64,000 nucleotides of DNA from Escherichia phage pEC-N1203-2Af.1. This document shows positions 13,303 through 13,887 of the stretch, in pieces. The position numbers were made by a program, and so were the translations under genes. The DNA is taken from the sequence record OQ540978.1; one strand, 5' to 3'. The first letter of the stretch is position 1. The number at the start of each line of letters is the position of its first letter. The notes under the pieces are model-generated. The model did not search any database. It saw nothing but the letters and a program-made list of their open reading frames with translations, and was not told the DNA's origin.

Positions 13303-13447
13303 ATGTAGGGTTGACCTACCTCTTTTAGAGAGTGCTCAAGGAAAGGCACTAGCCACTACGTTGGAGTGGTATCAGGACCAGTACACAGAATGTGCTGCTA
13401 ATCACAATGGATTGTTAGAAGCTCTGAAAGAGCGTGGAATAGAGTAA
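13187..13447 (+). CDS. o-spanin (Rz1-like lipoprotein), overlapped architecture
   Basis: Lipoprotein-type signal peptide MRKLNQFFIMSALVMTTSAC, Pro-rich mature region, C-terminal Cys; starts inside the i-spanin gene and extends past it. Confidence 0.5.
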   Translation: MRKLNQFFIMSALVMTTSACSTSDSSRQSMPLPTNLKAECRVDLPLLESAQGKALATTLEWYQDQYTECAANHNGLLEALKERGIE

Positions 13448-13887
13448 TGGCTATTGTTTTTGAAGGTAAAGCCAATGTCTTCACGGTGGATGCTCAAACA
13501 GTAACTTGTACAGTAAACCTAGTAGGCGTAATGGGTGCAGGGGTAGCTAAGGAGTATAAAAGAAGATACCCTGAAGCTTTTGAAAGGTATAAGATTGCTT
13601 GCAACTCTGGATTCCAGATAGGACAACTTCTCCTACAGAGGTTGAATGATGGGAGACTGGGGCTGTGTTTTCCAACTAAGAAGCATTGGAGAAACGGTTC
13701 TGAGGTAGAGTGGATAGAGCAAGGTTTACAAAAGCTATTACTTACCTACAAAGATAAGGGAATCACCTCTCTAGCCATAACACCTCTGGGTTGCAGTAAT
13801 GGAGGATTAGATTACCAATCTCAGGTAAGACCTATAATGTTTAAATACCTAAATCAGATGGACATACCTGTCTATATTTGTTTGTAA
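13447..13887 (+). CDS. macrodomain protein, TARG1/OARD1 (DarG-like) type
   Basis: [20 protein letters not shown] and [14 protein letters not shown]...IPVYICL align with recalled TARG1 segments GMGAGIAVLFKKKF and PRIGCGLDRLQW...ITVYTL; start overlaps o-spanin stop (TAATG). Confidence 0.6.

Follow-up and report, generated by a model that had tools for sequence, protein, structure and literature searches.

A stand-alone DarG-type macrodomain gene in an Escherichia Kuravirus, a likely AdfM-like orphan antitoxin

Genomic context of the macrodomain gene

The window analyzed here, a 64,000-nucleotide stretch of Escherichia phage pEC-N1203-2Af.1 (sequence record OQ540978.1), carries at the locus under study a compact run of genes whose DNA is 94 to 96% identical to that of Shigella phage SGF2, phiEco32, SU10, and ∼100 other records, which identifies the phage as a Kuravirus (Gordonclarkvirinae). 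The genes of the locus are as follows.

12928-13302, plus strand: gene for an Rz-like i-spanin, the upstream neighbor (PHROG 1152, E = 6e-38)
13187-13447, plus strand: o-spanin gene (PHROG 2425, E = 5e-27, residues 32 to 110 covered)
13447-13887, plus strand: stand-alone DarG-type macrodomain gene (146 aa, ATG start; ortholog of phiEco32 gp37; putative AdfM-like orphan antitoxin)
13907-14554, plus strand: phage sigma factor gene, the downstream neighbor (ortholog of phiEco32 gp36; PHROG 1740, E = 6e-46)
14551-14943: YpsA-like SLOG-family gene, two genes downstream of the macrodomain gene (PF10686, E = 2e-6)

The preliminary description of this DNA had placed a 146-codon open reading frame at 13447-13887, translationally coupled to the spanin pair (TAATG overlap) and directly preceding the phage sigma factor gene; the frame, the overlap, and the gene order were all borne out. 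Because the o-spanin frame ends at 13447, the position of the macrodomain ATG, its TAA codon shares one base with that start codon (gagTAATGgct). On the other side, the macrodomain and sigma factor genes are separated by just 19 nt. The o-spanin gene probably starts at 13187, the mechanically defined frame beginning at 13109; its product is lipoprotein-like, its frame overlaps that of the i-spanin, and several related records label the PHROG 2425 protein as o-spanin. In the original phiEco32 record, the orthologous gp37 (phi32_37) was annotated as a member of the “Appr-1-p processing enzyme family.”

Family assignment and predicted structure

The protein matches the Pfam Macro domain (PF01661) with an E value of 4e-9 and a score of 36.9 bits against a cutoff of 22, far beyond chance. 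Its similarity to DarG is much stronger: the PADLOC DarG profile is matched at E = 8e-44 (profile positions 6 to 142 of 329) and the NCBIfam antitoxin_DarG equivalog at E = 7.8e-41 (positions 6 to 144 of 338), with the next family reaching only 0.009. The NCBIfam score, 140.5, stays below the full-length cutoff of 250 because the N-terminal macrodomain part alone is present. Among proteins of known structure, a phmmer search of the PDB returned three significant matches, all of them DarG macrodomains, from Mycobacterium tuberculosis (5m3i, 1.5e-26), Thermosipho (DarTG, 7omu, 4e-25), and Thermus aquaticus (5m31, 1e-23).

An AlphaFold2 model built with 41 homologs as input (pLDDT, 95.8; pTM, 0.89) gave the same ranking. 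In a Foldseek comparison of this model with the PDB, the best four matches were all DarG macrodomains (TM scores of 0.85 to 0.92), and superposition on the ADP-ribose-bound T. aquaticus DarG (5m3e) yielded a TM score of 0.92 and a root mean square deviation of 1.5 Å. Human TARG1 came after the DarGs, with a TM score of ∼0.8 and 19 to 20% identity, so the structural check against macrodomains that had been proposed earlier came out in favor of the fold. The same description had assigned the product to a TARG1/DarG type. The DarG half of that assignment stands, since profiles, PDB matches, and the model all rank DarG first; the emphasis on TARG1, the next PDB sequence match with an E value of ∼0.12 and 19 to 22% identity, does not. 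By sequence and predicted structure, the phage protein is a DarG-type macrodomain, DarG-like rather than TARG1-like.

Active-site residues

The segments that are expected to form the active site, judging from the alignments with characterized proteins, are encoded as follows.

13516-13518, plus strand: codon for N24, the predicted substrate-positioning Asn, corresponding in the joint alignment to N22 of Taq (T. aquaticus) DarG and N23 of PhiKZ AdfM; invariant in 41 homologs
13525-13542, plus strand: first putative ADP-ribose-binding glycine loop, G27-V-M-G-A-G32, in which G27, V28, M29, G30, and G32 are invariant in 41 homologs
13678-13680, plus strand: codon for K78 in the FPTKKHW motif, aligned with the catalytic K80 of Taq DarG, K54 of enteropathogenic E. 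coli (EPEC) DarG, K78 of PhiKZ AdfM, and K84 of TARG1; invariant in 41 homologs
13789-13806, plus strand: second putative ADP-ribose-binding loop, G115-C-S-N-G-G120, aligned across homologs with Taq G117-G122 (loop role from PMC5179494)

Across the 41 homologs, with identity down to 38%, the invariant positions are N24, G27, V28, M29, G30, G32, K78, G115, and G119; K78 and N24 are invariant or almost so both in this alignment and in the joint one with DarG and PhiKZ sequences. Work on Taq DarG (Jankevicius et al. 2016, PMC5179494) found K80 to be indispensable, with N22 the next most important residue; it also described closure of the 117-122 loop over ADP-ribose and possible stacking of W83 against the thymine. 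The counterparts of these residues in the phage protein are K78, N24, the G115-G120 loop, and W81, respectively, and H80 corresponds to Taq H82. At residue 117, the counterpart of Taq G119, the studied phage has Ser, whereas phiEco32 and Bas91 have Gly and PhiKZ AdfM, an active enzyme, has Ala. The G119E substitution impairs the activity of Taq DarG; the Ser found here is probably harmless, judging from these aligned sequences.

Two catalytic-region blocks had been singled out in the preliminary description, FPTKKHW (residues 75 to 81) around a Lys and GCSNGGLD (residues 115 to 122) around an Asp. Both blocks are present and the Lys holds its place, but the proposed catalytic role of the Asp had to be dropped. 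In the alignment, the catalytic D125 of TARG1 (in GCGLD) faces G119 rather than D122, and the D122 column is variable among DarGs (Pro in Taq, Glu in Thermosipho, and Ala in the bacterial homolog P0072). In sequence terms, GCSNGG is the conserved glycine loop that binds ADP-ribose and does not constitute a catalytic motif built on an Asp. Orthology with TARG1/OARD1 was likewise rejected: the Lys is kept, but the Lys-Asp pair (K84 and D125) is not, and overall similarity is as low as noted above.

Orphan status

The protein ends at the point where the toxin-binding domain of DarG would start, so that the C-terminal DarT-binding domain is absent. No DarT gene adjoins the macrodomain gene, the neighbors being the spanin and sigma factor genes, and tblastn searches with two DarT proteins detected no DarT homolog (E ≤ 1) in either the window or Bas91, a close relative with a complete genome. 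The lack of both the toxin-binding domain and a DarT gene makes this protein an orphan antitoxin. [quoted passage not shown]

A transferase partner of another kind could be imagined, with the macrodomain serving as the immunity enzyme of a phage-encoded ADP-ribosyltransferase (ART), either limiting self-damage or recycling phage-made modifications. A 57%-identical homolog (P0023) does occur on phage-like contigs ∼2 kb from an ART-PolyVal gene, and some tblastn matches in actinophages overlap genes annotated as ADP-ribosyltransferases. However, no ART is annotated in the complete Bas91 genome, in which many ORFs are hypothetical, and a tblastn search with the ART-PolyVal protein found no match to either the window or Bas91 at E ≤ 10, leaving this arrangement very unlikely for the phage studied here.

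Homologs in bacteria and other phages

The closest bacterial homologs of the phage protein (43 to 48% identity) are physically linked to DarT genes. The gene for a Psychrobacter protein (P0100, 46 to 47% identity) abuts a PF14487 DarT gene and is located next to BREX genes, another (P0072, 47 to 48% identity) overlaps the end of the gene for an 1855-aa protein with a DarT domain, and a Klebsiella plasmid carries an operon in which a DUF4433 (DarT) gene is followed by a gene for a macrodomain that is 43 to 45% identical to the phage one. A DNA-level search in E. coli genomes for this plasmid operon, the closest enterobacterial one of its kind, gave no match.

This linkage bears on the possibility that the macrodomain reverses marks made by host transferases other than DarT2, such as uracil-linked ADP-ribosylation of RNA or ADP-ribosylation of proteins, and that some other defense system is its target. 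Specificity is not readable from sequence: Taq DarG, SCO6735, and TARG1 all cleave U-ADPr on RNA in vitro, and the closest structural relative from eukaryotes, TARG1, removes ADP-ribose from proteins. Nevertheless, such a target appears improbable, as U-ADPr is a clearly poorer substrate than T-ADPr for Taq DarG, the literature search did not find a bacterial antiphage system that writes U-ADPr, and the DarT linkage of the homologs points to DNA.

Similar weighing applies to the view that the main substrates of the macrodomain are not modified DNA but small derivatives of ADP-ribose (such as ADPr-1''-phosphate, O-acetyl-ADPr, and immune signals or toxins based on ADPr), possibly with the SLOG protein as a partner. 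This was the hypothesis of Iyer et al. 2022; it agrees with the historical “Appr-1-p processing” annotation and with the presence of the YpsA-like gene at 14551-14943. Still, the protein falls into the DarG clade, whose known members are DNA-directed, its nearest bacterial relatives are DarT linked, and the 41%-identical AdfM of phage PhiKZ acts on DNA. Moreover, the SLOG gene is kept in Kuraviruses that lack the macrodomain gene, so the two do not form an obligate pair, and a primary role in small-molecule processing is unlikely.

Among phages, a tblastn search recovered homologs in 271 records, mostly from jumbo phages of Pseudomonas, Erwinia, and Serratia, at ∼41% identity. An unrelated member of the Chaseviridae has an 81%-identical copy just upstream of its SSB gene, among small and mostly unannotated genes, which indicates horizontal transfer. 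A blastn search of 5,426 complete E. coli genomes in distant mode returned nothing, neither a prophage nor a chromosomal copy, and the idea of a recent capture from an E. coli host gained no support.

Presence/absence polymorphism and selection

The distribution of the gene among close relatives was surveyed with a 1.7-kb query that comprised the spanin, macrodomain, and sigma factor genes. The macrodomain gene is present in ∼40 of 73 close relatives, with 40 records covering the query in full. The other ∼33, which are 92 to 96% identical in the flanks, match it as two pieces, with 1238 bp in place of the 1701-bp span. As ∼45% of the close relatives do without the gene, it must be dispensable on many hosts. 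In phage 172-1, which has such an empty site, the o-spanin stop codon directly overlaps the sigma factor start. Bas93 and Bas94 are noncarriers as well, whereas Bas91, phiEco32, and SGF2 carry the gene. The boundaries of the cassette are marked by short repeats.

13447-13451, plus strand: left ATGGC microhomology at the cassette boundary
13910-13914, plus strand: right ATGGC microhomology, which with the left copy reproduces the empty site of phage 172-1

The empty-site sequence, GAATAATGGCGAAG, is the exact product of a 463-bp deletion between the ATGGC copies at 13447 and 13910. When ordered by flank similarity, carriers and noncarriers are intermixed, suggesting that the gene was repeatedly lost, gained, or exchanged by recombination. 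In other relatives, the same slot is occupied by an HNH endonuclease gene or, in Bas89, by two tiny ORFs, for which a Pfam search gave no match.

Where the gene is kept, the protein is under strong purifying selection, with 29 synonymous versus 4 to 5 nonsynonymous substitutions and a dN/dS ratio of 0.03 to 0.04. Dispensability and mobility combined with constraint are what would be expected of a counterdefense gene that is more useful on some host strains than on others.

Expression signals

An exact match to the gp36-dependent promoter consensus is relevant to the expression of this block.

12080-12088, plus strand: putative gp36-dependent middle/late promoter element TAATGTATA, exact match (consensus from PMC8948821)

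This element is located upstream of the gp40 homolog and the macrodomain gene block, with a terminator-like hairpin after the gp40 homolog, between the element and the spanin genes. A further gp36 motif, with one mismatch, is found at 13835-13843, inside the macrodomain gene. In the window as a whole, gp36 motifs occur at chance level (24 observed versus 20.5 expected), and a sigma70 promoter scan of the region showed no enrichment over shuffled sequences (6 found versus 8.8 expected). In phiEco32, the cluster with the DNA polymerase, nucleotide metabolism, and sigma factor genes belongs to the middle class, and gene 37 has been predicted to contain a sigma70 promoter that serves gene 36 (PMC8948821). 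Taken with the motif at 12080, which stands in the expected position, the phiEco32 literature hints at middle-class timing for the macrodomain gene; an enzyme that repairs single-stranded DNA templates might well be coexpressed with replication genes.

The promoter predicted within gene 37 and the one-mismatch motif at 13835-13843 are also what could be said for regarding the macrodomain frame as a decaying passenger, in which the DNA matters solely as the carrier of a promoter for the downstream sigma factor gene. That explanation is effectively refuted by the selection signature described above; in addition, the catalytic residues are intact, and phages without the macrodomain gene express the sigma factor regardless.

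Proposed function

The gene most likely encodes a catalytically competent DarG2-type macrodomain, that is, a DNA ADP-ribosyl glycohydrolase that serves as an AdfM-kind orphan antitoxin and erases DarT2 marks from phage DNA; we assign this reading a probability of roughly three in four. The direct observations behind it concern the fold, family, active-site conservation, orphan status, cassette behavior, purifying selection, and the DarT linkage of the nearest bacterial homologs. The earlier suggestion of a candidate eraser of DarT-type ADP-ribosylation is thereby strengthened, given the matches to DarG profiles and structures, the retention of K78 and N24, and the fact that the 41%-identical AdfM counters DarTG2.

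DarTG2 restricts coliphages such as T5 (PMC11825919; preprint 10.1101/2025.11.20.689424), and a functional macrodomain-type DarTG system is present in E. coli (EPEC). The proposed mechanism would run as follows. Upon infection of a DarTG2-carrying E. coli cell, DarT2 would ADP-ribosylate thymidines in single-stranded phage DNA and block replication. The phage macrodomain, presumably made alongside the middle-class replication genes, would bind the ADP-ribose moiety with its two glycine loops, position the substrate through N24, and use K78 to cleave the thymine-ribose bond, restoring the template and protecting the phage. As the protein lacks the DarT-binding domain, it would act by erasing the modification alone, with no sequestration of the toxin.

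A more far-reaching version can be envisaged, in which the protein is a minimal eraser of broad spectrum that removes T- and U-linked ADP-ribose, placed by several host transferases, from both DNA and RNA and forms, with the SLOG protein (YpsA-like) encoded nearby, a module of two enzymes directed against ADP-ribose, the 463-bp polymorphism directly setting which E. coli strains each Kuravirus can infect. It is an improbable extension of the reading favored here, the erasure of DarT2 marks from phage DNA.

Significance

Kuraviruses, including phiEco32, SU10, and the BASEL phages Bas87 to Bas94, are candidates for phage therapy against E. coli. If the macrodomain acts against DarTG2, this polymorphic gene would provide a simple host range marker on DarTG2-carrying strains, and natural carriers and noncarriers with ∼95% identical flanks offer a ready-made comparison. 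The same result would show that orphan antitoxins of the AdfM type are not confined to jumbo phages that form a nucleus but occur in ordinary cytoplasmic podophages as well. Searches of the literature found no work linking Kuravirus to DarTG, and a search for phiEco32 together with the macro domain returned just one unrelated phage genome paper. The idea itself is not new, since macrodomain anti-DarT factors of phages were already published in 2025-2026 and the Appr-1-p/macro annotation of the gene is old. Conceptually, the macrodomain nature of the product having been annotated in phiEco32, the gene adds one more data point and no new principle.

Comparison with known systems

The bacterial DarG2 proteins of T. 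aquaticus, M. tuberculosis, and EPEC (PDB entries 5m31/5m3e, 5m3i, and 7omu represent this group) belong to the same macrodomain subfamily as the phage protein, with 38 to 41% identity in the joint alignment, 34 to 38% in structural alignments, and TM scores of 0.85 to 0.92. Their catalytic Lys and Asn, the His-Trp pair, and both glycine loops are also kept in the phage protein. In contrast to the latter, bacterial DarG2 has a C-terminal DarT-binding domain of ∼200 aa and an adjacent DarT.

Human TARG1/OARD1 is of the same structural macrodomain class and has an equivalent of the catalytic Lys. It differs in its low sequence identity and in D125, which faces a Gly in the phage protein, and it is a eukaryotic de-ADP-ribosylase of proteins and nucleic acids rather than a component of a toxin-antitoxin system.

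Two factors of phage T4 also belong in this comparison. AdfN (T4 30.3) is an orphan antitoxin of the NADAR type directed against DarTG1 (PMC11825919). Like the proposed Kuravirus enzyme, it is a phage-borne antitoxin enzymatic domain that erases DarT marks on phage DNA; unlike it, AdfN has the unrelated NADAR fold, is specific for the guanine-linked ADP-ribose made by DarT1, and is inactive against DarTG2 (PMC11825919). The T4 macrodomain protein Tk.4, which is needed for resistance to DarTG2 in E. coli, has also been named AdfM (HIDEN-SEQ preprint 10.1101/2025.11.20.689424) and shares with the Kuravirus protein both the proposed role and the host species. However, the similarity between the two is marginal (a BLASTP E value of 9e-4 over 42 residues and 19% identity in the alignment), and Tk.4 has Gln at the position of the catalytic Lys (TQ versus the TK of the phage protein and DarG). 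Identity with the Tk.4-type AdfM was therefore rejected, Tk.4 was placed in a separate macrodomain subclass, and the two phage lineages probably acquired their macrodomains independently.

[quoted passage not shown] Its loss sensitizes PhiKZ to DarTG2, its active-site residues are N23 and K78, and according to that study, it was the first macrodomain Adf to be reported (PMC13309987). The Kuravirus protein is 41% identical to it over the full length (E = 2e-36), and the two have in common that they are stand-alone phage macrodomains of the DarG2 clade with the active-site Asn and Lys, the GVMGAG and GCxNGG loops, and no DarT-binding domain. AdfM of PhiKZ is imported into the phage nucleus that jumbo chimalliviruses form, and compared with the Kuravirus protein, it is extended at the C terminus and contains a 9-residue insertion. 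The Kuravirus version, whose activity is predicted, is encoded by a 77-kb podophage, in which its gene lies between the spanin and sigma factor genes as a 463-bp cassette that some relatives have and others lack. As such podophages are not described as nucleus forming, it is presumed to act in the cytoplasm, and import into the phage nucleus is probably not a defining property of the AdfM family. The gene is thus best described as a Kuravirus representative of the family of orphan DarG2 macrodomains typified by PhiKZ gp104 (AdfM).

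Accessory genes at the spanin-sigma junction

The junction between the o-spanin and sigma-factor genes is an accessory-gene hot spot. At the position of the macrodomain cassette, the related phages SU7 and Bas87 carry an HNH endonuclease, and Bas89 (L004 845-1169) carries two tiny ORFs of 68 and 41 aa, neither of which had a Pfam match. Two genes 3′ of the cassette there is a second variable slot. The gene in this slot and the one before it are as follows.

14551-14943, +, orthologue of phiEco32 gp35 (“GTP-binding domain”), 130 aa, YpsA-related SLOG family (PF10686)
14934-15209, +, DUF3310 protein, 91 aa (PF11753, E=3e-8)

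In the second slot, the DUF3310 protein is replaced by a 297-aa dNMP kinase (gp34) in phiEco32 and by a 176-aa kinase in Bas91. The match of the gp35 orthologue to PF10686 (E=2e-6; 27.9 bits) falls slightly below the cutoff of 28.2. Iyer et al. (2022) predicted that phages use YpsA-like SLOG proteins, together with macrodomains, to process derivatives of ADP-ribose; the SLOG gene is retained also in those Kuraviruses that do not have the macrodomain.

Elsewhere in the Bas91 genome (50.5-57.8 kb, L007, a stretch whose homologues lie in other parts of the window), genes for a glutamine amidotransferase, an amidoligase, and a COOH-NH2 ligase are clustered with those for an S6-modification-type (RimK-like) ligase and a gamma-glutamyl cyclotransferase. 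This Kuravirus cluster is a peptide or metabolite-modification module.

Promoter-like elements and the o-spanin gene

The region leading to the sigma-factor gene contains the following features.

12008-12016, −, TAATGTATA, exact, in the gap preceding the gp40 homologue
12080-12088, +, TAATGTATA, exact, in the same gap, forming a divergent pair with the preceding copy
12916-12933, strong terminator-like hairpin (AGCCACC-TTCG-GGTGGCT, then a T run), after the gp40 homologue
13109-13447, +, o-spanin ORF, 112 aa
13187-13215, +, sigma70-like promoter (10/12 match), within the spanin genes
13835-13843, +, gp36 promoter element (TAATGTTTA), one mismatch, in the 3′-terminal part of the macrodomain gene

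The last of these elements lies 64 nt upstream of the sigma-factor ATG. Given that a promoter for the sigma-factor gene has been predicted inside gene 37 of phiEco32 (PMC8948821), phages that lack the cassette must drive this gene in another way.

Translation of o-spanin probably starts at 13187 (MRKLNQFFIMSALVMTTSAC, with a signal peptide and a lipobox-like Cys). Because the PHROG profile match spans residues 32-110 of the 112-aa ORF, phiEco32 gp38, annotated as a 57-aa protein, looks truncated. The spanin genes are located within the middle-gene cluster, distant from the holin and endolysin genes.

Macrodomain homologues in other phages and in bacteria

An unrelated 54-kb member of the Chaseviridae, vB_EcoM_DE15, encodes a macrodomain copy (L005 5001-5441) with 81% identity (68.5% at the DNA level), found among small hypothetical genes directly upstream of the SSB gene, which is evidence for horizontal transfer of the macrodomain gene between coliphage families. 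The 57%-identical homologue P0023, from metagenomic phage-like contigs (L008-L010), is encoded ∼2 kb from, and on the opposite strand to, the gene for a 138-aa ART-PolyVal ADP-ribosyltransferase, so that eraser and writer are present together in that phage.

Bacterial homologues are linked to DarT at three loci (L011 5001-6748; L014 1-5666; L015 884-2357). The Psychrobacter macrodomain gene converges with the DarT gene, the two sharing 4 nt, an unusual arrangement for a toxin-antitoxin pair, and at L014 a 1855-aa protein contains the DarT domain. These DarT-linked homologues, which have a tail of ∼80 aa with a GIG-type helix-hairpin-helix-like motif, comprise 221-228 aa and are thus shorter than the canonical DarG (∼340 aa).
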